Part shown: piece after piece, positions 8,720 through 24,899 of the stretch
Numbering within the stretch: the first letter of the stretch is position 1
How the letters are laid out: every line of letters begins with the position of its first letter
Assembly (NCBI GenBank): GCA_964494745.1
Contig: CAZBSU010000002.1
Location: 1-25,492, forward strand
Reading direction: 5' to 3'
DNA length: 25,492 bases
Source: an uncultured Planctomycetales bacterium
Lineage (GTDB): Bacteria; Omnitrophota; Gorgyraeia; Zapsychrales; JANLHA01
Notes under the pieces: generated by a model
Database searches by the model: none
Told to the model about the DNA's origin: nothing
Seen by the model: the letters and a program-made list of their open reading frames with translations, nothing else
Position numbers and translations under genes: made by a program

Positions 8720-9241
8720 CTAATTTCTCGGAACGAGCTTGATCTCATTGCCCCCGGATCGGAATATGATCCGGTCCGGCAATATTTCCTTCAAGGTCGC
8801 CTCGCCTAATTTGTCTCCCACCGTTAAAAAGATCGTTTCCCTATCCTGAATGCGTTCCACAACGGCCTGAGGCCTATCCGCGTCAATGACAATCCCGACC
8901 AGGTTAAATTCCTGGCTCAGGTCAAACTCGGGGGTCTTGCTCGGTTCGGGCGTCGGCATCGTCTGGACCGGGGTGATGATCTTTTTTTCATGAGGGACCG
9001 CAAAGATATCCCGGCTTTCAAAAAGGGCCCGGTCAGCCTCGAAATCCCCCGGCACCGGCACGGCCGGTTTCACGTCCGGGAGGTCTTCCTCGAGGGCATC
9101 GTCCGTATTCACGGCGATCAGGGCCGTTTCCTGCGGGACAAAAAAACTATAAACGATCATCAGAACAAGCCCGGCGGCAAGAAGAACCAATAGCTGCGTG
9201 GCTTTATTCAGGACAGAAAGTAACGGACTTTGTTTTTGCAT
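8720..9241 (-). CDS. GspC/PilP-like inner-membrane protein
   Basis: Single N-terminal TM helix, RDIF motif, C-terminal 'L.GIV......AVV.......FL.VGD.....L.EI..D.I' HR-type domain; lies immediately upstream of the secretin. Confidence 0.75.
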   Translation of the reverse strand: MQKQSPLLSVLNKATQLLVLLAAGLVLMIVYSFFVPQETALIAVNTDDALEEDLPDVKPAVPVPGDFEADRALFESRDIFAVPHEKKIITPVQTMPTPEPSKTPEFDLSQEFNLVGIVIDADRPQAVVERIQDRETIFLTVGDKLGEATLKEILPDRIIFRSGGNEIKLVPRN

Positions 9242-9293
9242 ACCTGCGAAATATTCCTGACCCGAGACGGGACCTCAGCCAACATCATCAGTA

Positions 9294-9322
9294 ATTATAC
9301 TTTGCCATATTGGCCCAGTCGA
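9294..9322 (-). promoter_or_regulatory. Putative sigma70-type internal promoter upstream of gspC-gspD
   Basis: On the minus strand TCGACT (9317-9322), 17-nt spacer, TATAAT (9294-9299); a second TTGACT at 9322-9327; AT-rich 150-bp spacer. Confidence 0.55.
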
Positions 9323-9337
9323 GTCAAGTTGTGTTTG

Positions 9338-9373
9338 TGTTATTATAGGATTATTGTTATTTATAGGGTTATT
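9338..9373. repeat. Imperfect tandem direct repeat TGTTATT(T)ATAGG(A/G)TTAT, two copies
   Basis: 9338-9354 tgttattataggattat and 9355-9372 tgttatttatagggttat. Confidence 0.6.
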
Positions 9374-9392
9374 AAAACGCCAAAAGCGGGCT

Positions 9393-9929
9393 TCAGGGGA
9401 TAAGGATTTGTTTGAAGACAAGCTGACAGCGCAGTTTTTCGGCCTTAAAATACTCCCTGCGCAAAGTGAGTTCATCGAGAAAATACTGATAGGGCGGCCC
9501 CTGCATGATGTGGATGAAATGGAGAATATCGGTCAGCCTTCCTTCCAGTGACATGCTGACCGAAAAATGGTTGAATGAATCCACCGTCCTGAGCCGGTCG
9601 GGTTTCATGTCCGTGATCGGCACGCTGATGCGGGCGGAGACGGCCTGGATGTCGGACAACATCTTCGACATAATCTCTTCCGGCGAGTCTTTCTGTTTAT
9701 ACTGAGCCCAAAGCGGCTGATATTCCCGCCGGGCCTCTCTGGCATCCTGGACAAACCGGCGGTGACGCTCCATCTTCTCCTGCGCTATCTCGATCTGATC
9801 CTTGACCGACTCGACATCTCCGCTCAGCCACGGCAAACCGAATTGGAGAAACAGGGCCGCCAGCGCCACCACCACCAGCACATAAGCGATCTTTTGCTCC
9901 CGGCCTGTCCATTTATGTCGTGGCGCCAT
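9393..9929 (-). CDS. GspM/PilO-like inner-membrane platform protein
   Basis: W..RE..I N-terminus, one TM helix, coiled coil, C-terminal ferredoxin-like segment (F.VSMSLEG.L.DILHFI); follows the GspL/PilM-like gene. Confidence 0.8.
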   Translation of the reverse strand: MAPRHKWTGREQKIAYVLVVVALAALFLQFGLPWLSGDVESVKDQIEIAQEKMERHRRFVQDAREARREYQPLWAQYKQKDSPEEIMSKMLSDIQAVSARISVPITDMKPDRLRTVDSFNHFSVSMSLEGRLTDILHFIHIMQGPPYQYFLDELTLRREYFKAEKLRCQLVFKQILIP

Positions 9930-9932
9930 GAT

Positions 9933-11372
9933 CTATCCCCCTGCCTCCCCGGCTTTCAATTGACAGATAATCTTAAACTCCGTGTATTCCTGGCGAAACC
10001 GGACTCTTTGCGTCGCGTATTGCAGGGTGACATCCTGAAAAACCGGCGATTCCACCAGGCGGTTTTGAAAAAGATTGACCTCCCTGCCCGATGCCGCATT
10101 GCCCTGGATCGACAGCATCCCCTGGTTGTCGAGGTTCAGGGTTTGAAAATTGATCTCCCCCGGAGTCAGCTGATACAGCTCGCGGAATATTTCGACGAAA
10201 CGTATCCGTTGCCCCTGCAGGTCGGCAAAAGCGCGCAGGACATCCACCTCCTGTTTAGCGTTATCCGTCAAAGACCGTGCCTGTTTTAACTGTTCCTCCA
10301 CCGCCTGCAAACGCTGTTTGTCCCGGTAAACCTTCGTCCCGAACAAACCGAGGCCCAGCAAACCGGTTATCAGCAACGCAAGAACAAAACGCAGGACAAC
10401 CCGGCGACGGATGCGGGAGGCCTGATTATAGACGACCTCCTGAGGCATCAGGTTGACAAACGCATGCCCTTTCTCGAGCAGGAACCCGATGCTGCGGGTC
10501 AACGACAGCCCTTCCGCCTTCCGCTGGGGAGGCATGCCTAAGGCCTTGTCATAACCCAGATGATCAAACGAGGTCAGGACATCGACCGGGACACGGTAAT
10601 ATTCCTCCAGCTTCTGCGCCATCTGCACCCGCGCCTCCGTGTTGGCGACCACCACGATACGGGTGATATCCGGGCCCATATTTTCCTTGATATAAGCACC
10701 CAAGGTCAACCCGATCTGCTCCAGAAACGCCTCCATCTTATCCTCTACTAGATCACGGGACCCGAAACGAATATTACGGGAAAAAAATAATTTGTCCCGA
10801 TGACAAAAACAAACCTCGGTATTGTCATCATCTACATCCACAAGCATCAAACAGGCGGCGTCCGTCAATTTGGCCACCCTTTTTTGAAAAAGATACCAGT
10901 GCAGGATTCCCTGAGAGCCCAAAAAAAGATGCCGCGGGGTCAGGTTCTGCCTCTGCAGGACTTTTAAAAAATAAAGGACATTCTCCTTCTGAACGACGGC
11001 GATCAAAACACGTGAATATCCCTGCAGATCCTTATCAAGAATAAAATGGCCGAACACGATCTCCTCACGCGGGAAGGGCCCGAGTTGATTGATCTGAAGG
11101 CTAACCATATTTTCGATCTCTTCATCGCTGTGGGAAGGAAGCGTGATCTGTTTCAGGATAGCGTAGCGCCCGGGAATCAAGGCGGCCAAAGAGGAAATAT
11201 TCTTCCCCCGAATCAACTGCGCCAAGGCTCGGTCGAAATCCTGGGGCTGCTGCCCGGCCAACGGCACATGTTCGCAGAGCGTGACCACATGCTGTCCGCG
11301 GGCCCAGCGCAATTCCAGGAGCTTAACATGACTGTCGGTGAATTCAATACAGGTTGTCAGATCTTTTTTCAT
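9933..11372 (-). CDS. GspL-like protein (PilM-like cytoplasmic actin-fold domain, TM helix, PilN-like periplasmic domain)
   Basis: CIEFTDSHVKLLE, LPSHSDEEI..MV.LQ...PF, VNLMP before the TM, coiled coil and PilN-like C-terminus. ATG 11372 (MKKDL) preferred over 11393. Confidence 0.8.
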   Translation of the reverse strand: MKKDLTTCIEFTDSHVKLLELRWARGQHVVTLCEHVPLAGQQPQDFDRALAQLIRGKNISSLAALIPGRYAILKQITLPSHSDEEIENMVSLQINQLGPFPREEIVFGHFILDKDLQGYSRVLIAVVQKENVLYFLKVLQRQNLTPRHLFLGSQGILHWYLFQKRVAKLTDAACLMLVDVDDDNTEVCFCHRDKLFFSRNIRFGSRDLVEDKMEAFLEQIGLTLGAYIKENMGPDITRIVVVANTEARVQMAQKLEEYYRVPVDVLTSFDHLGYDKALGMPPQRKAEGLSLTRSIGFLLEKGHAFVNLMPQEVVYNQASRIRRRVVLRFVLALLITGLLGLGLFGTKVYRDKQRLQAVEEQLKQARSLTDNAKQEVDVLRAFADLQGQRIRFVEIFRELYQLTPGEINFQTLNLDNQGMLSIQGNAASGREVNLFQNRLVESPVFQDVTLQYATQRVRFRQEYTEFKIICQLKAGEAGG

Positions 11373-11414
11373 ACAAATGTCCCAACAAAACAACTTGATC
11401 CGCTGTCTGCCGCC

Positions 11415-12500
11415 TCAGCGTCTGCGCCAGGACAGGATCGTCAAATCATTACGGTCAACCACGGCCTCGATGACCGTCGTGATGCCGCTTTGCGGTTCCT
11501 CGCCGCGAACCCGGATGCGCAGATAACGCGCCGACCTGGCCTGATGCCTTTGCATGCTTAAGGCGATCACCCGTTCTTTCGCATTCAGCGGCATGCTGGC
11601 CAGCTTGACCGGGCGGTCATCGGCAGTAGCGGCCTGGCCGTCATCCCCGCGCCGGTGCATGAGCACCTTTTCCACCAGGCTGTCTGCATCCATAACCTCG
11701 GCATTGGTATAACTTCCGGAGTAATGCCGGGCCACGGCCTGCAGGATCTCATGCGGGGCCGTATCGAAATTAATCCGCAGGGCCCCTCCTTCCGGAATCA
11801 CGGTCAGAAAAGGCCGGACCTGTTCAAATATCTCCGGGGTCACACCCCTGACCGCCGTCAGTTCCTCAACACTGTCAAACGCCCCGTTCTTGCAGGTATA
11901 GGGCCGTTCCAGCGAAAGATAATAATCATTTTCGGCACCATACGCCGGGTTCAGCGGGGCATCATCAATATCCCGCCAGTCCACGACCGCCGTGGCAATC
12001 TCCTCGGCGACATCCTGCTCCTGCCCCAGCAGCATCAACAGGTTGATCAATATCCCGTCATTCTGCGGACCGACCGCATTAAGGTTCAACCGGCTCTGTT
12101 CATCGCCGAACCCGAATACTGCCGTCTTGAGCGCACTTCCACGGCCGATGGGCCGTTCGATACTGAACCGGTTGTCTCCGACCGGGATATCCTCAAATAA
12201 ATCCGCCGGGGTCTTGTCTTGATCAAGAATAAAACCGCAGCGATAAAGGGTATCGCCCTCGGCGCCCCCGGCCAAGCCGTTATCCCGCGCGATCCGGGCC
12301 ATCGCATAGGCCAGGCCCGACAGGGCGGCTGCCCGCGACTGCGTCTTGGCCAAGGCATACCGGGTCAGCTGTATCTCCACGCCGATCTGCCGGCTCAGAC
12401 CGATCGCCATGATCGACAAAATCATCAGAAGCCATAAAACAACAATCAATATTATACCAGAATTATTATTGTGTCTTAGAGAGAAGCGAAAAAAAATCAT
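11415..12500 (-). CDS. gspK: Type II secretion minor pseudopilin K
   Basis: SG-IILIIVLW prepilin helix lacking Glu+5 (typical of GspK), DEQSRLNLN, IATAVVDWRD.DD, FDSVEEL..VRGVT, INFDTAP. Confidence 0.9.
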   Translation of the reverse strand: MIFFRFSLRHNNNSGIILIVVLWLLMILSIMAIGLSRQIGVEIQLTRYALAKTQSRAAALSGLAYAMARIARDNGLAGGAEGDTLYRCGFILDQDKTPADLFEDIPVGDNRFSIERPIGRGSALKTAVFGFGDEQSRLNLNAVGPQNDGILINLLMLLGQEQDVAEEIATAVVDWRDIDDAPLNPAYGAENDYYLSLERPYTCKNGAFDSVEELTAVRGVTPEIFEQVRPFLTVIPEGGALRINFDTAPHEILQAVARHYSGSYTNAEVMDADSLVEKVLMHRRGDDGQAATADDRPVKLASMPLNAKERVIALSMQRHQARSARYLRIRVRGEEPQSGITTVIEAVVDRNDLTILSWRRR

Positions 12501-12527
12501 TTTTTCCCCAACAACGCGCTCTTGATA

Positions 12528-13373
12528 TTATTTGCTTTGAATCACCAACCCGTCTGTCCCTTTTGCGGCTGTGACGCCGGGAATAAAAAACTCCTTATGC
12601 ACGGCCAACCGCCGGCCGTCCTGAGGGAAGACAAATGTCATTTCAAAACGAATCGCGGCCGGTTGACCGAGCCCGATCCATTCATTCTCCCATTCCGGGT
12701 CTTCCTTCGCATCGATAGATTCCCGGCCGGCATATGAAAAAAGCAAACTGTTTTTAAGGATATGCGTCCCGAGAATCTGCTTTTGAACGTCCTGGGCTGT
12801 ATCCAAATCCTGGTAAGGGAAAGGCCGCTCTTCCCGGACTATGAAAACCCAGTCTTCGGCCTGTTGGTCAGACCAGCTTGTCCCGGCGGCAGAGGCCCGC
12901 TGGGCGCGGTTGACCATGACCTGATAGATACGGTTCTGCTCGGGGGGCTCCAGGTAATAGGCGATCTCCCGCAGCCCATTATCACCGGCAACGACCAGGG
13001 AAAGGCTTTGTTCCTGGCCGATAAAGGAACGGTCCAGTTGATCATCCTCGGTCAATCCGAAGATATCCCTCTGGGTGACGGTCACATTCTTTTGCGTCGC
13101 CTCACGAACGATCACCTCCTGCCGGAAAGAGGAACCGAGCTGAGTTTTGTAGCTAACCATATTTTCAAGATCCAGGCTTAGGGTATCGATAATCCCGTGG
13201 GCATCCCGGAACAGGCTTTCCAGGTTTTGCGCCTGGCGATTCAACCGGACAGCATTCGCGAACACGCCATAGACCGTCGTAGACAAAATCCCGAAGATCA
13301 TGATCCCCATCAGGACCTCAACTAAGGTAAAACCTCTGGTCTTGAAAAGGCGTTCTGACACCGGGGTCTTCAT
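12528..13373 (-). CDS. gspJ: Minor pseudopilin, GspJ-like
   Basis: RG-FTLVE prepilin cleavage/methylation motif; position between I and K; C-terminal W...W....P.AIRF. Confidence 0.75.
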   Translation of the reverse strand: MKTPVSERLFKTRGFTLVEVLMGIMIFGILSTTVYGVFANAVRLNRQAQNLESLFRDAHGIIDTLSLDLENMVSYKTQLGSSFRQEVIVREATQKNVTVTQRDIFGLTEDDQLDRSFIGQEQSLSLVVAGDNGLREIAYYLEPPEQNRIYQVMVNRAQRASAAGTSWSDQQAEDWVFIVREERPFPYQDLDTAQDVQKQILGTHILKNSLLFSYAGRESIDAKEDPEWENEWIGLGQPAAIRFEMTFVFPQDGRRLAVHKEFFIPGVTAAKGTDGLVIQSK

Positions 13374-13418
13374 GGCCGCCTCGTCATGTCCTGTTTGATG
13401 TTCATGGTCAGCCCCCGA

Positions 13419-13811
13419 TTAAGGTTCCGTCACCCAGAGTTCGGAGAGGACCTTCTTCTCTTTCCCTCCGGCCGTCCAGCCGATTTCGACGGTCACGGCC
13501 TTCAGCTTATCCAATTCCCGGGCCTGGTCGGCGAGCGGATCCCTCTCCTTAAGGGCATATCGAAAATGCTCATAGGGCTCTTCAAACGGCCCTTGATCAT
13601 CATCGGCCCCCTCGGAGAAGGTCATGAGCTGGGCTATTTTATTATCCAACAACCAGGCCGCCTGAGTATAATCGCGTATATAGCTCACCCCGCGCAGGCA
13701 CGTCATCATTGATGAAATAATGACCGTCAAACTGACAGACAGGATGACCACGACCAGCAAAACCTCGATCAGTAAAAAACCGTACCTGGTTGTCCTTTGT
13801 CTGCGTCTCAT
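13419..13811 (-). CDS. gspI: Minor pseudopilin, GspI-like
   Basis: YG-FLLIE prepilin motif; AA.LLDNKI and V.V.IGW patterns. Start moved to ATG 13811, so the gene no longer overlaps gspH. Confidence 0.75.
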   Translation of the reverse strand: MRRRQRTTRYGFLLIEVLLVVVILSVSLTVIISSMMTCLRGVSYIRDYTQAAWLLDNKIAQLMTFSEGADDDQGPFEEPYEHFRYALKERDPLADQARELDKLKAVTVEIGWTAGGKEKKVLSELWVTEP

Positions 13812-13822
13812 CGAAAACCCCT

Positions 13823-14347
13823 TTATTCCACACGACCGTGGAGAACCAGGACCCGGGCATGCTGATCCTGGGTCGAAAGTGTCAGGCATTGATCCCGGCG
13901 GCATAAAAACAACCGCCCCCCTTCTATGCGGCCGTCCGGATAGAATTCAAACGTTCGCTGAGTCGCTTCCAGTTCAAGCTCGGAAGGGATCATAAATGTG
14001 CGTCCCCAGCGTCCCGGCAGCGGCCTGGTCTCCGCTGCCTGCGTCGAGCCGGAGGCCTGCCCGGAATAAGACCGCAAACGGTAGGATCGCATGTCTTCGC
14101 TGAGGATGAATCGAAGACCTTGCTGATACGCAACCGCGCGCCCCTGGGCATAACGCATCAAGGAGGCTATTTGATTGGTGGTTGATGTCAGGATGATGTT
14201 TCTGAACGAACCGCTGAAGTTCGGGACCGCCATCGCGGCCAGCACACTCAAAATAATCACGACTAGCACAATCTCGATAAAAGTAAATCCCCGGCTCGTT
14301 TGTCGATTAAACGGCAACATCAATCCTGGCGTTTTGGTAGGAATCAC
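13823..14347 (-). CDS. gspH: Minor pseudopilin, GspH/FimT-like
   Basis: RG-FTFIE motif, AVPNF, R.AQ..AV, F.F.PDG; alternative start at ATG 14320. Confidence 0.78.
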   Translation of the reverse strand: MIPTKTPGLMLPFNRQTSRGFTFIEIVLVVIILSVLAAMAVPNFSGSFRNIILTSTTNQIASLMRYAQGRAVAYQQGLRFILSEDMRSYRLRSYSGQASGSTQAAETRPLPGRWGRTFMIPSELELEATQRTFEFYPDGRIEGGRLFLCRRDQCLTLSTQDQHARVLVLHGRVE

Positions 14348-14374
14348 AAAATTTCTTTCGGGATCGGGACGGGA

Positions 14375-14830
14375 TTAAAACGACGCCTCTTCCCCCGTCT
14401 GCCAATTTCTGATATCATCCCCGTTGTCCTGCTCGTCAGGACCCGAAGAATACAGATCATAACTCTCGGGATTGTGTTCTCCTGGAGATTGATATATGTA
14501 GGCGTGCCCCCAGGGATCTTTGGGGATGACCCGTTTTTTGAGATACGGCCCGCTCCAATTTTCCGGGACCGGCGATGAATTGGGTTTTGTCAGCAGGGCC
14601 CGCAGTCCCTGCTCCGAGGTGGGATAGCGGCCATTATCCAGTTCGTACATATCCAGGGCCATTGCCAGATTGGCTTCGATATCGGCCTTGGCCGCGGCGA
14701 TACGGGCCTGCTTCCCCCGGCCGGCGATGTTCGGGATCACCATCCCGACCAGAATGCCGATGATAATCACCACCAGCAGGATCTCCGTCAGGGTAAACCC
14801 GGCCGCCATCAAATATCTTTTTCTAACCAT
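14375..14830 (-). CDS. gspG: Type II secretion major pseudopilin
   Basis: AG-FTLTE motif, LDMYELDNGRYPTSEQGL.AL, W.GPYL, PKDPWGH.Y.Y.SPG, YDLYS.GPD; strong SD GAGGAGG. Confidence 0.96.
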   Translation of the reverse strand: MVRKRYLMAAGFTLTEILLVVIIIGILVGMVIPNIAGRGKQARIAAAKADIEANLAMALDMYELDNGRYPTSEQGLRALLTKPNSSPVPENWSGPYLKKRVIPKDPWGHAYIYQSPGEHNPESYDLYSSGPDEQDNGDDIRNWQTGEEASF

Positions 14831-14917
14831 CGAATCCTCCTCGCTTTTATCCTCATCTTAAATCTTTCCCTTTTATATACCCGCCACCCCTTTTCTTTTA
14901 CCGCTGTGAATGAAGAC

Positions 14918-15035
14918 CAAGCAGAACCAGGAAGTGCCTTGAGGCGAGTTCCGGAACCTCTCGCCTTCATCAAATTCAGGAAAGGCGAGAGGCGTGAGGA
15001 CTGTTTGAGCCTCAAGGCACTTCCTGGTTCTGTTG
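14918..15035. repeat. Nested inverted-repeat (hairpin) element in the gspF-gspG spacer
   Basis: Perfect 24-bp IR 14922-14945 / 15009-15032 (cagaaccaggaagtgccttgaggc), extendable by 3 bp past a bulge. Inner perfect 11-bp IR 14957-14967 / 14982-14992; 10-bp palindrome gttccggaac at 14948-14957. Confidence 0.9.
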
Positions 15036-15074
15036 ACGATTAAATTTGCTCATAGCGTTAATCTTCCATCCTTT

Positions 15075-16304
15075 TTACTGAATAATTAAATTCATCCGGA
15101 AGATCGGCATCAACATGGCCATAACCACAAAACCGACAATCACACCCATAACCAAAATCAGCATCGGCTCCATCAATGACAACATCCTTTTGATAAAACG
15201 CTGCGAACGCCGCTCATAATAATCCGCCAATTTATACAGGCCTTTTTCCGTATGGCCGGACTCGGCGCCCACCGCCACCATGCTGACCACGGTTTCCGGA
15301 AAATATTCATTGCCGGCCAGCGCCGCGGCCAGACTCTTGCCGTCCTGGACATCAGCGGCGACGTTCCGGACCTGGCGTCGCAGGACCTCGTTCTCCAGCA
15401 CCCGTCCGACCGAATCCAAAGCAGCCAGGATCTCGACTCCGCTTTCCAGCAGCGTGCCCAGCGTCCGGGCAAAACGACCCAGCTGGATATCCCGCAAAAA
15501 ATCGCCGACTAAAGGCACCCTTAATTTCAGACGGTCGAGCATGAGTTTGCCTTTCGGGGTCGCATACGCCTTTTTCAAATACAACAAACCGGCGGCTAAC
15601 AACACCAGAAAAAGCCACCAAAATTTGGCAAAAAAACCGCTGATGGCAATAAGCACCACGGTCGGCAGAGGCAGGGCCTGATTCAAATCCTCGAAGATCA
15701 ACGTAATGCGCGGGATGACCCAGGTCAACAGCACAAAAACGGTGATCCCGCCGACAATAACGATCAGGGCCGGATACAACAGGGCCGTCGTGACCTGATT
15801 CCTGACATCCTGATCCCGTTCGTTGAATTCCGCCAAACGGTCCATCACCAAATCCAGATTGCCGGCCATTTCTCCGGAACGGGCCATGTTCACATACAAT
15901 AACGGAAAGATATCCGGAAATTGGCTCAAGGCCCGCGAAAAGGATCCGCCGTCGCGCACAACCGTTATCATCTGCCGAACATCCTCTTTGAAACCGGGAT
16001 GACGCATCTGGCGCTGGACGATGATAAGGGTTTGCAAAAGAGAAACACCCGCGCCCAAAAGATCACTCACTTGCCGGGTGAACATCAGGACGTCGCCCGC
16101 CGGGACGCCGCGTCCCGGGAAAAAAGTCCCGCCGCTGGGTGTCTTCTGGGCCTTGCGGCTGTCGCGTTGGGGTTTTTGCTTGATGTGAATCGGGGAAAGG
16201 CCCCGCTCCAGGAGCTTGGCAACCGCGCCGTCGGAGCTTTCGGCCTCGACCAGACCTTCGACGATCTTTTGGGGGCCCTGTTTGGCTTTATAAACGAATT
16301 GCAT
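15075..16304 (-). CDS. gspF: Type II secretion inner-membrane platform protein (GspF/PilC family)
   Basis: F.YKA N-terminus, FTRQ.S.LL.AG, GGSFS.AL, E.AGNL, ALLYP, RF.RTLGTLL.SGV, GAESG, EP.LILVMG..VGFVV.AML.PIF. Confidence 0.94.
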   Translation of the reverse strand: MQFVYKAKQGPQKIVEGLVEAESSDGAVAKLLERGLSPIHIKQKPQRDSRKAQKTPSGGTFFPGRGVPAGDVLMFTRQVSDLLGAGVSLLQTLIIVQRQMRHPGFKEDVRQMITVVRDGGSFSRALSQFPDIFPLLYVNMARSGEMAGNLDLVMDRLAEFNERDQDVRNQVTTALLYPALIVIVGGITVFVLLTWVIPRITLIFEDLNQALPLPTVVLIAISGFFAKFWWLFLVLLAAGLLYLKKAYATPKGKLMLDRLKLRVPLVGDFLRDIQLGRFARTLGTLLESGVEILAALDSVGRVLENEVLRRQVRNVAADVQDGKSLAAALAGNEYFPETVVSMVAVGAESGHTEKGLYKLADYYERRSQRFIKRMLSLMEPMLILVMGVIVGFVVMAMLMPIFRMNLIIQ

Positions 16305-16382
16305 AAGTGTCTTTTAACGCCGCATGACACACGCCGAGGCGACCTAAAATATTTCTATGCCCCCGGCGCATCTCGGACAACG

Positions 16383-18083
16383 TTAATTTTCTTCCTTGGT
16401 AACACGGACAACTTCTTCGGGCGTCGTCAACCCCTGCCGCACCTTTTCCCAACCGTGGCGCAAAAGGATTTTCATGCCCTGCTCCCGGGCCTTCTTCCTT
16501 ATCTGTCCCGACGAGGCCCGGCTGTTGATCAGCTCCCGGATATCCTCGGACATCGGTAAAAATTCGTAAATGCCTTCGCGGCCGTAATACCCGGTATTAT
16601 TGCAGTAATTGCAGCCCTTGCCTTCGTAGATGGTGACGCCCTCGACATCCGCCGGCGACAGCCCAAAATCATGAATAATGTCCGGCGTCAGATTCCGTTC
16701 GGTCTTGCAGCGCGGGCAGATCAACCGGATCAGGCGCTGGGCGATGAAACACTCGACCGCGCTTGAGATCAGATACGGCTCAACGCCCATATCGATCAAA
16801 CGGGTGATGCCGCTGACCGCGTCGTTGGTATGCAGGGTGGAAAAGACCAAGTGACCGGTCAGGGCGATCTGGATCGCGATCTCAGCCGTTTCCAGATCGC
16901 GGACCTCCCCGACCATCATGATATCCGGGTCGTGACGAAGCATCGAGCGCAGGCCGCGGGCAAAGGTCAGGCCGATCGTCGGATAGATCTGAACCTGGGT
17001 GATCCCTTTAAGCTGATATTCGATGGGGTCTTCGATCGTGATAATCTTGCGGTCGGCCTTGTTGATCCGCGACAAACAGGCATACAGGGTTGTGGTCTTG
17101 CCGCTTCCGGTCGGCCCGGTGACATAAATGATCCCATGCGGCTTATGGACCAGCCGGTCCAGCTTGGTCTGATCCTCCGCCGAAAGCCCGAGCTCGCTCA
17201 TATTATATAATTTGGCCGACGACAAGATGCGGATCACGGTGCTTTCCCCGAACTGGGTCGGCAGGAAAGAAACCCTCAAATCCAGATCGGTATTGCCGAT
17301 ACGCACCTGAAACCGGCCGTCCTGGGGCAAACGTTTCTCGGCGATATTCAGCCGTGACATGATCTTGATACGGGAATTAATGGAATCCTTGAAATGAAAA
17401 AGGTTGCCCGGGACCTGGGCGTCACGCAGGATCCCGTCAACCCGGTAACGGATCATGAGCTCGTTTTCAAACGGCTCGATATGGATATCCGTGGCCCGCT
17501 GGCGGTAAGCCTCCATCAGGATCTGATTGATGAACTTCCCGATCGAGGCCTCGGAATCGATCTCGGATATATCGGTTATTTTTGTCTCGACCGCCTCGGG
17601 CGGCTGGACGGCATCCATCATACGGGCGATGGTCTCGGCCCCCACGCCGTAATATTTCCGGACCGCCTCAGCGATATCCTTCTCGCTGGCCAGCACCGTC
17701 CTGATCTTGAACGGCACGATCAGGCTGATACCGTCGATCACATTGATATCCAAGGGATGCGAGGTCGCCACGGTCAGGAGATCGGACTCAAACCGCACCG
17801 GAACGACTTTGTAATAAACCGCGAACTTGGCCGGGATGCGGGCGATCACGTCACGGGGGATATTGATATTGCGGAGATTGACGAATTCGACCCCCAGCTG
17901 ACCGGCCAAAAGGGGCATAAAGACCGATTCCTCGTCCACAAAACCGAGGGTCATCAGGGTGACACCAAGCAGCTCCCCGGTCTCACGCTGTTTTTTAAGG
18001 GCGATATCCAGCTGGTCGGTATTGATCAGACCGTTCTCAACCAGGATCTCGCCAAGGCGCTTTTTGGGGTTGTTTTGGGACAT
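16383..18083 (-). CDS. gspE: Type II secretion ATPase (GspE/PilB family) with MshEN-like N-terminus
   Basis: RLGEILVENGLI...QL..AL..Q N-terminus, ATDIHIEP, EKRLPQDG, Walker A GPTGSGKTT, TIEDPIE, RHDPDIMMVGEVRD, TGHLVFSTLH, CxxC...CxxC. Confidence 0.95.
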   Translation of the reverse strand: MSQNNPKKRLGEILVENGLINTDQLDIALKKQRETGELLGVTLMTLGFVDEESVFMPLLAGQLGVEFVNLRNINIPRDVIARIPAKFAVYYKVVPVRFESDLLTVATSHPLDINVIDGISLIVPFKIRTVLASEKDIAEAVRKYYGVGAETIARMMDAVQPPEAVETKITDISEIDSEASIGKFINQILMEAYRQRATDIHIEPFENELMIRYRVDGILRDAQVPGNLFHFKDSINSRIKIMSRLNIAEKRLPQDGRFQVRIGNTDLDLRVSFLPTQFGESTVIRILSSAKLYNMSELGLSAEDQTKLDRLVHKPHGIIYVTGPTGSGKTTTLYACLSRINKADRKIITIEDPIEYQLKGITQVQIYPTIGLTFARGLRSMLRHDPDIMMVGEVRDLETAEIAIQIALTGHLVFSTLHTNDAVSGITRLIDMGVEPYLISSAVECFIAQRLIRLICPRCKTERNLTPDIIHDFGLSPADVEGVTIYEGKGCNYCNNTGYYGREGIYEFLPMSEDIRELINSRASSGQIRKKAREQGMKILLRHGWEKVRQGLTTPEEVVRVTKEEN

Positions 18084-18222: not shown

Positions 18223-18471
18223 TTATGCGGAAGGCGGGGCGGTATTCCCCATCTCGTCCCTCTCTGTTATGAGGACCTTGGCAATACGGTGGGAACTCTT
18301 GACCATGCCGTAGCCGGTGACAAAGACATAAATCCCGACCTGGACATGCAAATAATTCTGCTCCAGAAGATCGATAACAATAATGATAAATCCGATCAAA
18401 ACGGAAAAGAATCCGCAGATATCACAAATCGTGCTGAGCCTTTCCAATGACACCCGGTTTTCAGCCCGCAT
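18223..18471 (-). CDS. Small hypothetical membrane protein (two predicted TM helices)
   Basis: AAGGAG SD about 10 nt upstream of the ATG; two hydrophobic stretches; fills an otherwise non-coding gap. Confidence 0.7.
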   Translation of the reverse strand: MRAENRVSLERLSTICDICGFFSVLIGFIIIVIDLLEQNYLHVQVGIYVFVTGYGMVKSSHRIAKVLITERDEMGNTAPPSA

Positions 18472-18642: not shown

Positions 18643-18684
18643 GGTTACATTCCCTTTAAGATCTTGACACTCTTTAAATATCCC

Positions 18685-19473
18685 ATGATCGCCGAACATC
18701 TTGAATTATACAAAAAGTGGTTTAAGGATTACGCCCGCAGCTTTCTCGGCGGAAGCGAAACCGATGACAATAATATCCAGATCAAGATCGACCACACCCG
18801 GCGCGTCTGTGACGAGATCACCTTCCTGAGCCGGAGCCTTGGCCTGGACAAAGACGATATCGCTCAGGCCCAGATCTGCGCACTTTTTCACGATGTCGGC
18901 CGTTTCGAACAATACAAACGCCACGGCACCTATGCCGACCATCAATCCGAAGACCATGCCCAGTTGGGCGTGACGATCCTCCGTCAGCAAAAAGTCTTAG
19001 CCAACCTGCCCGCGGCACAACGGGAACTGATCATCCGTGTGATTGCCTGCCATAACCTCGCCCGCCTACCTGACGATCTGGACGAGCGCACCTGTTTTTT
19101 TGCGCGCCTCCTGAGGGACGCGGACAAACTCGATATCTGGCGGGTCGTCGTCGCCTATTATCGTGAACGCGAACACAAGCCCAACACGGTCATCGAGCTG
19201 AATCTGCCCGATACCCCCGGTCTATCTGCCGGCGTCCTGAACGATCTGCGCGCCGGGCGGTTCGTGGACCGCAGGCATATCCGCAATCTCAACGATTTCA
19301 AACTGCTCCAGGTCGGATGGATTTATGACCTCAACTTTCCCGCGACTTACCGTCTTGTCAAAGAAAGGAATTATCTGGGCAGTATCCTGGGCCACATAAC
19401 CGACGGCCCCGAGCTGGCCAAGGTGCGCGCCCTGATCACGGCTTTCCTGGAGGAAAAAACAAGGCATCAATAG
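18685..19473 (+). CDS. HD-domain metal-dependent phosphohydrolase, substrate unknown
   Basis: H (KIDHT), HD (FHDVGR), H (EDHA), H (CHN), D (RDADKLD). ATG 18685 preferred over TTG 18664. Confidence 0.88.
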   Translation: MIAEHLELYKKWFKDYARSFLGGSETDDNNIQIKIDHTRRVCDEITFLSRSLGLDKDDIAQAQICALFHDVGRFEQYKRHGTYADHQSEDHAQLGVTILRQQKVLANLPAAQRELIIRVIACHNLARLPDDLDERTCFFARLLRDADKLDIWRVVVAYYREREHKPNTVIELNLPDTPGLSAGVLNDLRAGRFVDRRHIRNLNDFKLLQVGWIYDLNFPATYRLVKERNYLGSILGHITDGPELAKVRALITAFLEEKTRHQ

Positions 19474-21092
19474 TCCAAAACCCGGGCGCGGATAAAGACC
19501 ACATGCTCAATCCGCCGGCTCTTTGTGCGTTGTCTTTGGAAAACCCGGCCGAGAAAAGGGACATCCCCCAGCAGGGGGACCTTACGGGTCATCTGAATCT
19601 GTTCCTCTTCGAACATCCCGCCGATCACGGCCACCTTATCGTCGCCCACAGCCAAGTCAATCTTTGCCTGCCCCCCTTTTTCTTTTCGAAGCGGACGCGA
19701 CGGGATTACCGTTAACGTAAGGGACTGGTCCAGATGCACGACCGGCACAAATTCAAAATCCATTCCCTCCGGCAGGGAGCTGTCTTGAGAAACGTCGGCC
19801 TGGGGCCCCGCGCCCGTCTTCGCACGGCTTCCGGCATCCTTTAGCTCAAGCGTCATCTCTTTATTGGCAAACCCGACCCCCAAAGTGATTTTGTCCCGGG
19901 CCAGAGCCATGACGCCCGGGCCCGGGGCAAACGACATCTGCCCCACGGTATCCATCGCCTCCATCAGGACATCATAATCCTCCTGACTGATACTCCCGAC
20001 GCTGACATCCTTGTCATACGGTGTGCAGGATGACTCATCCTCGGTCAGGCAGCGGTAATCAGACACGATCGCCTCCCAGTCGATTCCGCTCTGGTATTCC
20101 TCGGATAAAATAACCCGCACGCTCTCGGTCTCGATCATGACGCGATGGGGCACGTCCCAGGCCTGGACCGATTCGGTGATCCGGGCCAGGGCCGGGACCG
20201 TATCCGTGACGATCACCTTGCGCTCTGTCTCATCATAACGGGCATAACCGCGGTCATCGGTCAACAACTCCCGCACCTTTCCCAGGACTTCCTGACCAGG
20301 GGCATACGCCAGCAGAAAGATCTCCGTCCGGACCTCAACATCCTTCTTCGCCATCAAGGCCGTCATGTCCTTTAAATTGGCCGGGGTGTCGACCAGGACC
20401 ACGGTCTTGTGATCGCCCGATAAGGTGATTCGGCCACGGGAACCCTTCAACTCTTCCAGCTGGGGAAGGATGACCTGCGGATCGATGTATTTGAGACGGA
20501 CAACCCGGGATGAAAAATTTTGATCAAACCGGTAGCTGTATTCGCTCTCAAATGTCTCCGCGGTCATAATCCGCACACCGCTGTCTTTCACGACCATGGC
20601 CAGACCGTGGCGGTCAACCAACACCTTTAAAATATCCCGCACCTCAACGTCGGCAAGGGTCAACGTCACCGAGCCAACCACCCCCGCGTCCACCTGGATC
20701 GGCAGGCCGCTTTGACGCCCGATCGACCGCAAGGCGAGAAAAAGGTCTTCCTCTTGGAACTCCACCCGTATCCGTTCGCTCAAAAGGGCCTCGGGGTCGA
20801 TCAGCTCCAGCGCAGGCCTTTCGGGCGCGGGGGTCGCCGGCACCGGCGATGAAGTCACGGCCCCCGATTCAGACGGCCCCTGCCTTTCTTCCTGCAAAAG
20901 CGCCTCGGTCTGATCCAGGGCATCCAGGGCGTTCCTGATGACCGCGTCTTTGTCTTCGGCTTTCGGTTCTGTCAAAAGAAAAAGACTGAATAACAGCGCT
21001 AAAACACATGCAGCCATCCGCTGCCAGGACAGTAAAGTCCGACTCATAAAAGCCCTGCGTGGATTATTCACGTAACGACGTTTATTCTTCAA
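19467..21092 (-). CDS. Second, divergent secretin (GspD/PilQ family paralog)
   Basis: Signal peptide, STN/N0-like and two N domains, GIDWEAIVSDY, VIGGM, KVPLLGDVPFLGRVF; collinear with 6882-8696. Start may be ATG 21047. Confidence 0.85.
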   Translation of the reverse strand: MKNKRRYVNNPRRAFMSRTLLSWQRMAACVLALLFSLFLLTEPKAEDKDAVIRNALDALDQTEALLQEERQGPSESGAVTSSPVPATPAPERPALELIDPEALLSERIRVEFQEEDLFLALRSIGRQSGLPIQVDAGVVGSVTLTLADVEVRDILKVLVDRHGLAMVVKDSGVRIMTAETFESEYSYRFDQNFSSRVVRLKYIDPQVILPQLEELKGSRGRITLSGDHKTVVLVDTPANLKDMTALMAKKDVEVRTEIFLLAYAPGQEVLGKVRELLTDDRGYARYDETERKVIVTDTVPALARITESVQAWDVPHRVMIETESVRVILSEEYQSGIDWEAIVSDYRCLTEDESSCTPYDKDVSVGSISQEDYDVLMEAMDTVGQMSFAPGPGVMALARDKITLGVGFANKEMTLELKDAGSRAKTGAGPQADVSQDSSLPEGMDFEFVPVVHLDQSLTLTVIPSRPLRKEKGGQAKIDLAVGDDKVAVIGGMFEEEQIQMTRKVPLLGDVPFLGRVFQRQRTKSRRIEHVVFIRARVLDY

Positions 21093-22431
21093 AATACATG
21101 GCCTTCTTGATTTTATCCATCTGCGTCTGCCGGCGCGGGTCGTTCGGATAGCGTTTGAGCAACTTCCGCTCGATCTCGAATGCTTCGTGCAAACGGCCTA
21201 TCTGTTTAAGGATCTCGGCCTTGGTATCAAGATAAGCATAATTATCGGGATCATCGTCCAGCGCGCGGTTCACCAGTTCCAGCCCGCGGTCAAGATGTTC
21301 ACCCCGCTGCGCGTAAAGCCAGGCCAAATCGTTATGCGCGGGCACATGATCGGGCTGCTCGCGGATACTCTGCTGCAGCAGCTCTTCTTTTTGCTGATCT
21401 GTCAACTGAAAATAGCGCACCTGATATTCGAAATACGCCGGATTGGCCAACAGCACCATGACAAGCGGGATCACCGTCATGCCGAAATTGAAAGCATAAT
21501 GAGCCATAATTGAAGGAATACTTGATCCGGTCCAGGCCCGCAAGACCGTAAGCACAAAACCTAAAACCGTAACCGCGGCGATGGCCGCCCAGTCGCCCCA
21601 ATACTGATCATAATGCAGCAACGCGAATACCAAGCCGATGACCGCCACGGCGAAAAGGTTTCCTTTTAAACGGGCGAGCACCTGAAAAAAATAACCACGA
21701 AAAATAACCTCCTCAAAAAACGGGGCCAGAAGCACGGCCACGACAAGGAAGGAAAACAGCAAACCGAAGGACTCCGTGGAGGCCAGCATGTTATGAAAAG
21801 GCGTCGACGGCTGGTGGGCGCGTGACATCATGACCAAGGCCGACACCCACGCGCAGAAAAAACCGATCAGGACCGGAAGGACCCACAACCGCCATCCGGA
21901 CTGGGCCTTCACCTGAAGCCCGAGCAAGACCCGATAGCGGCAGCCGGGATAATTCCGGCTGATACGATAAACCAGCCCCAACATCAACACCGAGGAAAAT
22001 AAGGCGACAATAACCGTCCGCCCCAGAGGGGCGTCGCCGAACGGCATGATCGGGGCCAGGACCTCGACCAGAACGGCAAAAACGATCATGCCCGCGATCC
22101 AAAAAAGGACCAACCCAAAGGTATCGGAAAGCATGGTCAGGCGGGAATCCATAAAATTCTTGCTGCTATCTTTCAAAAACAAATTATGTTTAAAATGAAC
22201 CCGGCAGCTCAGGTAAACCGTCAGGAGAAAAACCATAAGCAAGACGGGCAGGCGTTCGACCTGACCGGCCAGGCGCGACAATACGGCCAAAAAAAGCAGG
22301 GCCAGACAAAGCCCGCCGGCCTGAAGCAGGGTCAGGGAAAAACTCCGGCGGAACGTTTCCCGATCTTGCCTTTTCAACAGGTAAATATCCAACACGATGA
22401 TGGACCAAAAGATAACCACGCCGAAAAACAT
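21082..22431 (-). CDS. CPBP (Abi/CAAX-family) intramembrane glutamic endopeptidase with extra N-terminal TMs and C-terminal TPRs
   Basis: PFFEEVIFRG, FALLH and AH..FN catalytic motifs; multiple TM helices; C-terminal TPR-like helices (AHNDLAW.YA...LDRGLELVNRAL...P.N..YLDT.A). Confidence 0.85.
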   Translation of the reverse strand: MFFGVVIFWSIIVLDIYLLKRQDRETFRRSFSLTLLQAGGLCLALLFLAVLSRLAGQVERLPVLLMVFLLTVYLSCRVHFKHNLFLKDSSKNFMDSRLTMLSDTFGLVLFWIAGMIVFAVLVEVLAPIMPFGDAPLGRTVIVALFSSVLMLGLVYRISRNYPGCRYRVLLGLQVKAQSGWRLWVLPVLIGFFCAWVSALVMMSRAHQPSTPFHNMLASTESFGLLFSFLVVAVLLAPFFEEVIFRGYFFQVLARLKGNLFAVAVIGLVFALLHYDQYWGDWAAIAAVTVLGFVLTVLRAWTGSSIPSIMAHYAFNFGMTVIPLVMVLLANPAYFEYQVRYFQLTDQQKEELLQQSIREQPDHVPAHNDLAWLYAQRGEHLDRGLELVNRALDDDPDNYAYLDTKAEILKQIGRLHEAFEIERKLLKRYPNDPRRQTQMDKIKKAMYFEE

Positions 22432-22501: not shown

Positions 22502-23434
22502 TTACCTGCCTTTCCTAAACCCGGCGATAAAAAAACCTTCCATCTCTTCCGTCGGCAGGACTCGAAGACAGCGTGACACGCGCGGATCGTATGCCCGCCC
22601 TTCCCAAGCCGTCACGGCCGGATAAGTTTCGATTCCCGCCAAGGTCAAATCCAACATCTCCATCTGCCCCGCGGTCTTGCGCAGGAGCCAATCGGCCACG
22701 GCCTCATTTTCCTCCGGCGCGAAGGTACAAGTCGAGTATATCAGAATCCCGCCTTTTTTCAATAACCGCGACGCATTCAGCACCAGGCCCTTCTGTTTGC
22801 GCGCCATCTCCTTGATCTTGCGCGGGCTCCAGAAAAGACGGGTCTTGGGGTCATCTATCTTGAACCGGGCCTCACAGCTGCAGGGAGCATCAACCAAAAT
22901 CCGGTCAAACAGCTCCCGGTCGCGAAACCTACGGCCGTCCGCGCAAATCAAACGGGCATTAGCAACACCAAGCCGGCTCAAGACAGACTTCAATTTGTAA
23001 TACCTTTTACGGATTGGCTCAACACAGACCAGCTCGCCCTGATTGCCCATGCGGGCCGCGATCTGGGAGGCCTTGCTGCCCGGCGCGGCGCATAAATCCA
23101 GCACCCGTTCTTCGGGCTGCGGATCAAGAAGCGCAACCGGAAGCATGCTCGCCAAAGACTGGATATAAATCCGGCCGTCGGCCAACAAACCTGTCGTCTC
23201 CAATTCCCGGGAAGATAACAATGGAAAGACCAGGGCCTGTGCTGACCAGGGGATAGTTTTAAATGGGACCTTGAGCCCACGCAGGATTTCTTTCAACTCA
23301 TCCGGACCTGTCTTAAGCGCATTAATCCTGGCACTGACGGGCGCACGCATGGAAAAAGTCGCTTTAACCCTTTCCAAATAAGAATTTGCGAGAATTTTCG
23401 CGAGCCGGTCAATAAATTCTTGTTTTAGTTCCAT
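22502..23434 (-). CDS. RsmB/NOP/RsmF family RNA m5C methyltransferase (short form, catalytic domain only)
   Basis: IYIQSLASM, DLCAAPGSK, LVDAPCS, YSTCT..PEENE, GFFIA; no NusB-like or C-terminal PUA extension visible. Confidence 0.9.
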   Translation of the reverse strand: MELKQEFIDRLAKILANSYLERVKATFSMRAPVSARINALKTGPDELKEILRGLKVPFKTIPWSAQALVFPLLSSRELETTGLLADGRIYIQSLASMLPVALLDPQPEERVLDLCAAPGSKASQIAARMGNQGELVCVEPIRKRYYKLKSVLSRLGVANARLICADGRRFRDRELFDRILVDAPCSCEARFKIDDPKTRLFWSPRKIKEMARKQKGLVLNASRLLKKGGILIYSTCTFAPEENEAVADWLLRKTAGQMEMLDLTLAGIETYPAVTAWEGRAYDPRVSRCLRVLPTEEMEGFFIAGFRKGR

Positions 23435-23498: not shown

Positions 23499-24899
23499 AT
23501 GAAACACTTTTCTTCCCAAAAAGCCCAAAGCCCGATTGAAAGCACCACCCTGGGCGTGCTGTCCATTATCGCGCTTTTGGTCATGAGCACCTATGTGACG
23601 CGCTCGATCAACGCCTATTTCAAGACCACCGAGGACACGCTCAAGGATTCCATCGCCGAAGATCTGCTGCAGTCCGAACGCGCCGAAAGCCCGGAATGCG
23701 ATTGCAGCAACGAGATCGTCGGGGAATGCGGGGGAGGAGACTGCGACGACAGCCAGGAGCTGGTCAGCTATACATGCACTCCAGAAGGCTGTGGCCATCG
23801 CCCGCCCTGGTGCCGGACCAACCGCCCCCGCTGCTGTTATGAGGAAGGGGATTGCATGGAAAACGGCTGCCCTAACGGCACCAAATACATCCGCACTTCC
23901 TGCGAAAACGAACCGCTGACGTATATTTGCGACAAGGACGAAGAATGCAAGATCTGCTGCAATCCGCAGGAGCCCATGGGGCCCTGGTGCCCCATGGACG
24001 GCGAAACCAATCCGGCCTGCCCCTCCAGCCTAACCGCTGTCAAGGATGTGCGCTATGTCGGGAACGACATCACCGATTGCGGGGCCTACGTGCCCCAGGA
24101 GGTCTGCGACGCGGTCTGCACGCCGCCTCTGATTCCGGCCGTCGCAGAAGGCTCGGAATTGACCTATGCCTATGGCTGCGCCTGCCCGCCGGGATATCAC
24201 CAGACCACCAATGATGACGGCGAGATTGTCTGCGAATTTATTTACGATTGTCAACTCAGGGGGATTTCCTATTACAGCAGTGATCAAAATAGCACCTGTT
24301 TGACGAATTATGGCACCCAATATGCCATGAATAATTACGGCTGTGTCTGGGACAACCATTATTGCCGCTACAACAACATGGAATGCTGCACCCTTCCACC
24401 TGAAGTGGAGATCGATACCTCCGTCTGCACCTATACGCCATGGCTAACGGTAAGCACCAGCTCGGCAGGTATCTTTAGTTCTCTTTTGGGAATTAATCTT
24501 CACGTTGACGGCGTGGAAGGCGAGGATGCCCTGTTGGCGGCAGGAACGGACCCCCTCGGCATAACCAGCTGTCCGGCCAATTATGTTGCCGTTGGTATCG
24601 ATTACGGGCACGGCGCCACACATGGCCAGGTGGCCGACACAACAAACATGATTTACCGGCTGGAATGCTGCCCGCTGCGTGCTACACGGTCCGGGGCCGG
24701 ACAAAATGTTCAGGTTTCCGATTGCTCTTGGACGTCCGATTATCATGGCGGCTTAATTGCCGATCAGGGCTGCGCAGAGTTTAACGACGATCACACTTAT
24801 TTCGCGGTGGCCCTGGATATGTGGGGATATATGGACGGCTGGCTTGGTTATCAAGGCGCCGCGCATAAGACCAAGTGCTGCCGCGTATCAGTTGAGTAA
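23499..24899 (+). CDS. Cysteine-rich exported protein with Flp/TadE-like prepilin N-terminus (putative pilus-tip adhesin)
   Basis: SD GAGGT; N-terminus KA-QSPIE (Ala at -1, Glu at +5) followed by a hydrophobic helix; 38 Cys, all from residue 67 onward; EGF-like C-x-CPPGY motif; C-terminal repeats ending in CC. Confidence 0.75.
   Translation: MKHFSSQKAQSPIESTTLGVLSIIALLVMSTYVTRSINAYFKTTEDTLKDSIAEDLLQSERAESPECDCSNEIVGECGGGDCDDSQELVSYTCTPEGCGHRPPWCRTNRPRCCYEEGDCMENGCPNGTKYIRTSCENEPLTYICDKDEECKICCNPQEPMGPWCPMDGETNPACPSSLTAVKDVRYVGNDITDCGAYVPQEVCDAVCTPPLIPAVAEGSELTYAYGCACPPGYHQTTNDDGEIVCEFIYDCQLRGISYYSSDQNSTCLTNYGTQYAMNNYGCVWDNHYCRYNNMECCTLPPEVEIDTSVCTYTPWLTVSTSSAGIFSSLLGINLHVDGVEGEDALLAAGTDPLGITSCPANYVAVGIDYGHGATHGQVADTTNMIYRLECCPLRATRSGAGQNVQVSDCSWTSDYHGGLIADQGCAEFNDDHTYFAVALDMWGYMDGWLGYQGAAHKTKCCRVSVE

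Follow-up and report, generated by a model that had tools for sequence, protein, structure and literature searches.

The 25.5-kb window analysed here, a stretch of contig CAZBSU010000002.1 from the phylum Omnitrophota, encodes two secretins: a canonical GspD and a strongly divergent paralog, located on either side of an operon resembling a type II secretion system (T2SS) and a type IV pilus (T4P). Comparison across the phylum identifies the paralog as a member of an ancient, phylum-wide divergent secretin class, termed class D, in which the gate is often shortened, as opposed to the GspD-like class C. The substitution pattern among its orthologs indicates that the paralog is under purifying selection, with a gate region that is close to unconstrained. 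The most likely role, to which we assign about an even chance, is that of a separate, weakly or softly gated outer-membrane channel linked to the adjacent T2SS/T4P-like machine.

Two secretin classes in the Omnitrophota

The paralog and the window GspD are collinear, with 30% identity over 449 columns (BLASTP, E 4e-66), and the motif pairs from which the original prediction had deduced this relationship are present (DTPANL/DTPEKL, GIDWEAIVSDY/GIDWEGIVKDY and KVPLLGDVP/KVPLLGDIP for paralog/GspD), bearing it out. The Pfam Secretin profile (PF00263) matched GspD with 175 bits over profile positions 1–168 of 169, whereas for the paralog the match of 55.1 bits (cut-off 27.5) covered positions 104–168 only. 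Secretin_N (PF03958) was detected at residues 180–232 of the paralog (195–247 in the numbering of the 541-aa open reading frame, ORF) with 35.6 bits against a cut-off of 28.2. Solved secretins retrieved by phmmer from the PDB aligned with the last ~60 paralog residues only. The paralog remained below the NCBIfam cut-offs for GspD (TIGR02517; 91.3 vs 351.35 bits) and PilQ (TIGR02515; 101.7 vs 284.35 bits), as did the class C GspD with 257.8 and, just short, 269.7 bits, respectively.

Relatives were collected with profile searches and by scanning GTDB genomes, where the best 80 of 111 loci were analysed with 10 kb flanks each (loci and database proteins are referred to by L and P numbers, respectively). 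Classes were assigned by motif rules, and the core was defined as the segment from ALDTVG to VIGGL. Dozens of Omnitrophota secretins carry GIDWEAIVSDY and ALDTVG, and these fall into two groups. The core of the GspD-like class C is nearly invariant (SSPRITAVNNKEAKILVGSTEPYVTTTT...) and 117 aa long in 31 of 33 sequences. Class D proteins share GIDWEAIVSDY and ALDTVG, which are followed by a hypervariable core of 76–163 aa (median 103) without common sequence and lacking SxPxIT..EAxIxVG..EPY, a pattern that the window paralog fits. A neighbour-joining tree, calculated from the non-gate columns only and carrying no bootstrap or other support values, is split by one bipartition into 32 class C and 45 class D sequences, with the paralog on the class D side.

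Positions conserved to at least 80% account for 69% of the gate region in class C vs 1% in class D, and for 42% vs 2% of the N0 domain. The corresponding values were 57% vs 36% for the lip and the following helix and 50% vs 27% for the carboxy-terminus, and the lip/helix and carboxy-terminal motifs are common to both classes. The pairing of two secretins is not confined to the window: both classes are found across the Omnitrophota and occur together in at least 13 genomes, comprising the window, both sister contigs and at least ten metagenome-assembled genomes (MAGs) of GTDB. A recent, lineage-specific deletion, as implied by the original description of a remodelled gate, is ruled out by the phylum-wide occurrence of class D and its separation in the tree, the gate being hypervariable in sequence and length throughout the class. 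The best explanation for class D is an ancient duplication of the canonical GspD-like secretin of the phylum, class C.

All named database relatives belong to Candidatus Omnitrophota. The sequence itself is present in five metagenome DNA runs only (three from hydrothermal vents, one marine and one from sediment), and no ortholog with more than 33% identity was found among the GTDB species representatives, the closest relatives being metagenome contigs only. Eleven database proteins of 256–283 aa (P0045–P0054 and P0058) consist of a stand-alone secretin domain of ~260 aa without N domains, matching the class D profile with E values of 1e-40 to 1e-48. We found no description of Omnitrophota secretin paralogs in the searchable literature; a preprint on giant genes concerns a different, RcpC-containing locus.

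Gate elements of the paralog

An HMMER alignment equates G453 of the enterotoxigenic Escherichia coli GspD (PDB ID: 5ZDH), the residue changed in the V. cholerae G453A entry 5WQ9, with G456 of the window GspD (..AKILIG), and the second glycine bounding Gate 1 with G486 (..FIEVG). For f1 pIV, two conserved glycines were reported to bound Gate 1 and to act as hinges, 90% of the leaky mutations fell within the gates or the inner barrel, and a 10-residue deletion in Gate 2 resulted in leaky multimers (PMC8563730). This mapping, together with the pIV data, supports the earlier assignment of the differences between the two window secretins to the gate hairpins.

The proposed 13-residue deletion in Gate 2 is confirmed: the interval between TLxxxP and IGG comprises 25 residues in the paralog (SRPLRKEKGGQAKIDLAVGDDKVAV) and 38 in GspD (EVSS...GVTIV). 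Gate 1 is by contrast not deleted, but is longer by six residues in the paralog (37 vs 31) and unrecognisable by sequence. The GspD block SSPSIT..EAKILIG..EPY could indeed not be recognised in the paralog, as stated originally; its supposed replacement by unrelated sequence was dropped in favour of collinear, unconstrained divergence, given that BLAST still aligns the two segments collinearly (GPGVMALARDKITLGVG vs SSPSITAINNQEAKILIGS). Judged by this alignment, the paralog segment is homologous but unconstrained. Both hinge positions are occupied by glycine in the paralog (G392 and G428). Class C proteins invariably carry the first hinge glycine, the orthologs of the paralog have A, T, R or S at this position, and no Gate-1 residue is conserved within class D. 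Within the class C gate region (window positions 7098–7331, minus strand; P0004, P0022, P0024–P0028 and P0032), the tip of Gate 1 has an odd composition, a strongly conserved poly-threonine run TTTTTTTASGPTTT.

Structure models of the two window secretins

AlphaFold2 (AF2) was run on monomers, where the alignment used for the paralog also included class C sequences. The paralog model reached a predicted local distance difference test (pLDDT) score of 87.9 and a predicted template modelling (pTM) score of 0.73, and the GspD model a pLDDT of 81.7 with low values only in the amino-terminal linker. Both models contain N0–N1–N3 modules, which in the paralog form three β-α-β-β-α units with pLDDT >93. 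The elements of the modelled barrels agree closely in length (paralog/GspD): 13/12 residues for outer strand 1, 14/14 for the helix following the lip, 19/18 for the penultimate long strand, 4/4 for the short helix of the KVPLLGD loop and 21/21 for the last strand.

The two models differ in the gate. GspD was predicted with two long, confident hairpins (451–468/474–495 and 500–517/523–531). The Gate-1 region of the paralog consists of strands 387–394 and 397–404, a loop 405–428 with pLDDT below 50–65 and strand 429–437, and its Gate-2 region of strand 443–449, loop 450–462 and strand 463–467, so that the Gate-2 strands comprise 7 + 5 residues vs 18 + 9 in GspD. The ascending strand of Gate 1 is kept in the model, with the descending arm turned into a probably disordered polar loop of 24 residues (405–428). 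An intact gate, the outcome that would have spoken against the original prediction of an altered one, was not seen in these monomer models, with Gate 2 shortened and Gate 1 largely disordered.

Foldseek searches with the monomer model of the paralog returned InvG, PilQ, PulD and GspD with a probability of 1.00 and E values of 6e-19 to 1e-14 over 460–590 columns. With best E values of 6e-19 (paralog) and 7e-24 (GspD), both models were placed among secretins. The TM-scores to solved secretin cores were 0.27–0.33 for the paralog and 0.44–0.61 for the window GspD model, but global TM-scores are uninformative here, since the domains are splayed in monomer models, and the class C control likewise gave only ~0.3.

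Residues 302–369 of the paralog hold the Omnitrophota signature GIDWEAIVSDY ... EDYxVLxxAxDTVG, which is common to both secretin classes. The β-lip is very short in both of them (19941–20144 and 7401–7610, minus strand), with 43–47 aa from GIDWE to ALDTVG including the 14-residue helix; the lip lengths quoted for phage and T2SS secretins are 36 aa and 51–60 aa, respectively (PMC8563730). The new cysteine pair of the original prediction, C333 and C341, is present and comprises the sole cysteines of the mature paralog, mature GspD having none, and is a candidate for a disulfide. It lies outside the gate, at the tip of the β-lip, and is confined to a close subclade: the window protein, P0002, P0034 and P0021 carry the pair, P0003 has lost the second cysteine and the remaining class D loci lack it. 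A function of the pair as a gate feature is ruled out by its lip position in the AF2 model and by this restriction to a subclade.

Selection on the paralog

The paralog shares 54% and 53% identity with its class D orthologs P0002 and P0003, and at both loci the synteny from RsmF through PilO is identical to the window. The class C orthologs P0123 and P0124, encoded on the same sister contigs (33,307 and 35,814 bp), show 79% and 78% identity. In the same genomes, the rate of divergence of class D is hence over double that of class C (46% vs 21% amino-acid differences). ORFs are intact in the three orthologs and two more distant relatives, and none of the class D loci examined has a disrupted reading frame.

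Whole-gene dN/dS was 0.20–0.24 (Nei–Gojobori), to be read, like all dN/dS values given here, as a rough, upper-bound-like estimate because dS is saturated (>1.2). Along the gene, dN/dS was 0.03–0.04, where measurable, for the segment from GIDWE to MDTVG and 0.16–0.23 for the carboxy-terminus; the gate region showed 0.3–0.6 among the three close orthologs and 0.82 in comparison to the more distant L005.

These data bear on the possibility that the paralog is a decaying or non-functional duplicate. Such decay could account for a gate region and an N0 domain that evolve almost freely and for a divergence over twice that of class C on the same genomes (46% vs 21%). It is nevertheless highly improbable, being effectively refuted by intact frames in all examined class D loci across the phylum, and further opposed by a whole-gene dN/dS of ~0.2 that drops to 0.03 for the lip and helix, by strong motif conservation and by the confident AF2 model. 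Pseudogenisation, named beforehand as a possible outcome, is excluded by the intact orthologs and the whole-gene dN/dS of ~0.20–0.24 at saturated dS.

Gene neighbourhood and synteny

The window carries a long series of genes on the minus strand (Table 1). The likely start of the paralog is the ATG at 21047, which is preceded by AGGG 5–8 nt ahead and agrees with the database protein P0001 of 526 aa. The original reading frame had been taken from a TTG at 21092, a less likely start, which adds 15 codons overlapping the upstream gene, whose stop lies at 21082. A lipoprotein secretin is unlikely, with no h-region before Cys14 and no convincing lipobox.

Table 1 Features of the window and of its two secretins
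Feature	Position	Strand	Remarks
RsmF-like methyltransferase	22502–23434	−	
CPBP (Rce1-like) intramembrane protease with carboxy-terminal TPR repeats	21082–22431	−	35 nt upstream of the paralog, same strand
Secretin paralog (class D), coding sequence	19467–21047	−	526 aa + stop
Signal peptide region	20958–21047	−	hydrophobic core residues 11–25; amino-terminal helix in the model
N0-like (92–170), N1-like (179–235) and N3-like (239–297) periplasmic domains	20157–20774	−	pLDDT >93
Outer-barrel strand 1, short β-lip and next helix (residues 302–369)	19941–20144	−	from model and conservation
C333-x7-C341 pair (CLTEDESSC)	20025–20051	−	tip of the β-lip, between lip strands 329–334 and 348–354
Paralog Gate-1 equivalent, G392–G428	19764–19874	−	37 aa, via BLAST alignment
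Paralog Gate-2 remnant SRPLRKEKGGQAK, residues 450–462	19662–19700	−	13-residue loop replacing the 26-residue GspD hairpin
Segment matched by secretin profiles	19476–19670	−	only such part; last inner/outer barrel strands and KVPLLGDVPFLGRVF loop (19539–19583)
HD-domain gene	18664–19473	+	convergent with the paralog; 3' ends overlap by 7 nt
Conserved 82-aa ORF	18223–18471	−	upstream of gspE; no assigned role
T2SS/T4P-like operon	8720–18083	−	between the two secretin genes
GspE (PilB-type ATPase)	16383–18083	−	
GspC-like protein	8720–9241	−	
Class C GspD, comparator paralog	6882–8696	−	canonical
GspD Gate 1, G456–G486	7239–7331	−	31 aa
GspD Gate-2 segment, E508–E533 (EVSS...SEAE)	7098–7175	−	26 residues
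Amidase_3 (AmiC-like) gene	5821–6885	−	

The operon between the two secretin genes encodes GspE, GspF, GspG, three minor pseudopilins, GspK, a PilM–PilN fusion, a PilO-like and a GspC-like protein, combining T2SS-type parts (GspC, GspK, pseudopilins) with T4P-type parts (PilM/N/O). The PilM-like and PilN-like parts are joined in a single 486-aa protein (9933–11393, minus strand), a fusion kept in all related loci. GspE carries an amino-terminal c-di-GMP-binding motif of the MshEN type (NF053729, E 2.4e-16), which suggests that the machine may be under c-di-GMP control. Beyond Amidase_3 follow MurI, queuosine genes, RNase PH and Ham1, where the genes past MurI were named by matching ORF size and order to L006/L007. 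The HD-domain gene and the 82-aa ORF are also found in L001 and L003 and are missing from most other Omnitrophota loci.

The upstream neighbour of class D is nearly always a CPBP(/TPR) gene; this order was found in ~30 GTDB loci, usually with RsmF further upstream, and is also present in L001–L005. Class C follows the GspC-like gene and closes the gspE...gspC operon. The full layout of CPBP-TPR, D, gspE...gspC, C, amidase and MurI was found in the window and in L049. L065 and L070 show the same layout from D onward, with D cut at the locus edge and CPBP-TPR beyond it, and six further loci show it in part (L047, L060, L072, L074, L075 and L008). At other loci one block has moved, leaving D–amidase–MurI or C–amidase–MurI. 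Class D is often placed immediately before gspE, and the distance to a co-directional downstream gspE is 35–330 nt in L047, L049, L060, L065 and L070. These arrangements would be most simply explained by an ancestral order in which a single operon was framed by the two secretin genes. In most Omnitrophota genomes (L006–L087), the secretin gene at the end of the block, be it class C or class D, is immediately followed by Amidase_3 and then murI, and peptidoglycan remodelling may be coupled to secretin assembly.

The CPBP-TPR protein contains ten hydrophobic segments, predicted to be transmembrane (TM), and the CPBP motifs EExxxR, FxxxH and HxxxN are visible in it. Lys/Arg-rich loops follow segments 1, 3, 5 and 7, and its carboxy-terminal TPR is therefore predicted to be periplasmic by the positive-inside rule. 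The TPR matches are of a generic kind and score under all family cut-offs; the protein could conceivably act like a pilotin or as an anchor. Certain lineages have the CPBP part alone (246 aa in L006). P0044, a 935-aa protein of an Omnitrophica MAG, fuses a secretin (~260–567) to a carboxy-terminal TPR (784–889) with weak similarity to PilW and Tgl.

On the plus strand, positions 23499–24899 encode a 466-aa protein with 38 cysteines and one amino-terminal hydrophobic anchor (13–31), which had no match in Pfam or NCBIfam. Divergent relatives occupy the equivalent position in L001, L003 and L005. The original prediction had considered this protein pilin-like and as a possible substrate of the paralog; it lacks a canonical prepilin motif (GFTLxE, as in the window GspG), and only conserved proximity in L001–L005, with weaker matches in L067, L069 and L080, links it to the secretin.

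Possible roles of the class D secretin

Starting from the observed paralogy, class, conservation, synteny and intactness, and from the modelled fold and gate shortening, we infer the oligomeric state, leakiness, partner and substrate of class D as follows. Selection keeps the parts that build and insert the barrel, namely the outer strands, the GIDWEAIVSDY/ALDTVG signature, the KxPxLGDxPxxGxxF loop and the N1/N3 ring domains. We interpret this as class D conserving what builds and inserts the barrel, and not what closes the channel or docks to the inner-membrane platform. The protein would be a functional outer-membrane secretin that assembles into a 12–15-mer channel of its own, in whose periplasmic constriction a weak or soft plug would take the place of a hinged double gate held by hydrogen bonds. 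It would be made together with the CPBP-TPR membrane protein encoded upstream, a possible assembly or anchoring partner via its periplasmic TPR, and would offer the adjacent type-IV-filament machine a second passage across the outer membrane, for exit or entry, that is gated differently.

Several observations weigh against this proposal. The lack of conservation in N0 speaks against a conserved contact to the inner-membrane platform and weakens the step connecting class D to the adjacent machine, and the near-identical lip signature of both classes could indicate mixed rings. The low pLDDT of Gate 1 may stem from poor alignment signal instead of real disorder, and with G392 and G428 kept, the paralog may still have a working Gate 1. 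The gene order RsmF-CPBP-secretin-...-amidase-MurI-Que is conserved as a backbone throughout the phylum and contains housekeeping genes with no relation to secretins; adjacency of CPBP-TPR alone is therefore a weak sign of a functional link, and in L022 the slot following CPBP is occupied by a class C gene.

According to a rival explanation, class D would function only together with class C GspD, as its hetero-oligomeric or stacked partner, and the mixed or stacked rings would thin or widen the periplasmic gate of a single outer-membrane complex belonging to the operon between the two genes. At least 13 genomes encode both classes, the likely ancestral order is D – gspE...gspC – C (window, L049, L065, L070), and mitochondrial T2SS-derived systems provide a precedent with GspD and the divergent GspDL (PMC8134430). 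Phylum-specific lip/helix motifs common to both classes and identical outer-barrel element lengths in the models imply that the subunits would sterically fit one barrel, and constraint is lost exactly in the gate and in N0, which would be dispensable for a minority or accessory subunit. Most MAGs, however, encode the two genes at separate loci, often on different contigs, which is unexpected for stoichiometric partners. We also know of no hetero-oligomeric bacterial secretin. Overall, we regard this explanation as unlikely.

The synteny can be read in a further way, with class D having left the secretion machine and acting as a constitutively open or loosely plugged pore, or a scaffold with CPBP-TPR, independent of GspE–GspC. 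For instance, a pore of this kind could mediate the uptake or release of envelope material or large solutes by these very small and possibly host-dependent cells. Class D and its CPBP(/TPR) neighbour remain paired while the downstream gene switches between amidase and gspE, and many genomes encode class D at a great distance from all T2SS genes (L006, L052, L055, L056, L059, L079). Unconstrained evolution of N0, the platform-docking domain, and class D cores down to 76 aa, too short for two gate hairpins, point in the same direction. A simple pore would, however, be expected to lose the N domains, and class D keeps a full N0–N1–N3 at high model confidence; it also directly adjoins gspE in several lineages, and the clearly unrelated RsmF is equally syntenic with the CPBP gene. 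Overall, we consider such a machine-independent pore doubtful. A broader formulation, likewise to be given a low probability, is a two-secretin outer-membrane module of the Omnitrophota type-IV-filament machines, in which a conserved, tightly gated class C and a gate-poor class D are mixed or stacked, or class D forms a second portal assembled via the CPBP-TPR inner-membrane partner. The separate, softly gated channel linked to the adjacent machine remains the role that we favour.

To our knowledge, the double gate is the most conserved part of every solved secretin, because an ungated channel of ~6–9 nm in width would breach the outer-membrane barrier. Here, a whole phylum has long retained a second secretin with a freely varying gate that is often too short for two hairpins. 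If class D forms a channel, this channel would be sealed in a new way, tolerated open or active only inside a mixed complex, and each of these outcomes would inform secretin gating and assembly as well as the envelope biology of the Omnitrophota. The two-secretin module, if true, would bring to light either a natural bacterial secretin that can dispense with its periplasmic gate or one that is hetero-oligomeric, in each case the first of its kind. The contrast between class C and class D moreover provides a natural comparison that splits barrel-forming from gating residues. Among the ultra-small Omnitrophota, which depend heavily on type-IV-filament systems, predatory forms have been reported (bioRxiv 10.1101/2023.11.21.568195).

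Comparison with known secretin systems

With canonical T2SS and T4P secretins (GspD, PilQ; PDB IDs: 5WQ8, 5ZDH, 6VE2, 6W6M) the paralog shares a signal peptide, N0–N1–N3 and a carboxy-terminal secretin domain with the KVPLLGDxPxLG loop, full-length Foldseek matches (E 1e-16 to 1e-19) and a gene position beside a gspE-F-G...C operon. It differs from them in that only its last ~65 residues match the profiles, with NCBIfam scores of 91–102 bits vs cut-offs of 351/284. Furthermore, its Gate 1 lacks sequence conservation and is modelled as partly disordered, Gate 2 is shorter by 13 residues, the β-lip is very short, an S-domain is absent and the TM-scores are lower than those of the window GspD.

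The CPBP-TPR neighbour resembles TPR pilotins and assembly factors (PilF/PilW, Tgl) in its predicted periplasmic TPR, encoded immediately upstream of the paralog. Those proteins are outer-membrane lipoproteins, whereas here the TPR is fused to a 10-TM CPBP intramembrane protease and the similarity is generic. The natural changes in class D affect the same elements as known leaky or open-gate mutants, the Gate-2 deletion and hinge-glycine variants of f1 pIV (PMC8563730) and the V. cholerae G453A variant (5WQ9). The latter are laboratory changes in otherwise conserved gates, whereas the class D state is evolutionarily stable across the phylum.

The closest described parallel is the mitochondrial pair GspD/GspDL, a canonical protein of the secretin C-domain and a much more divergent paralog, which its authors propose to reflect an elaboration of the pore (PMC8134430). 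The mitochondrial proteins lack the N domains, which are split off as GspDN, whereas class D retains N0–N1–N3, and the two pairs are of independent origin.

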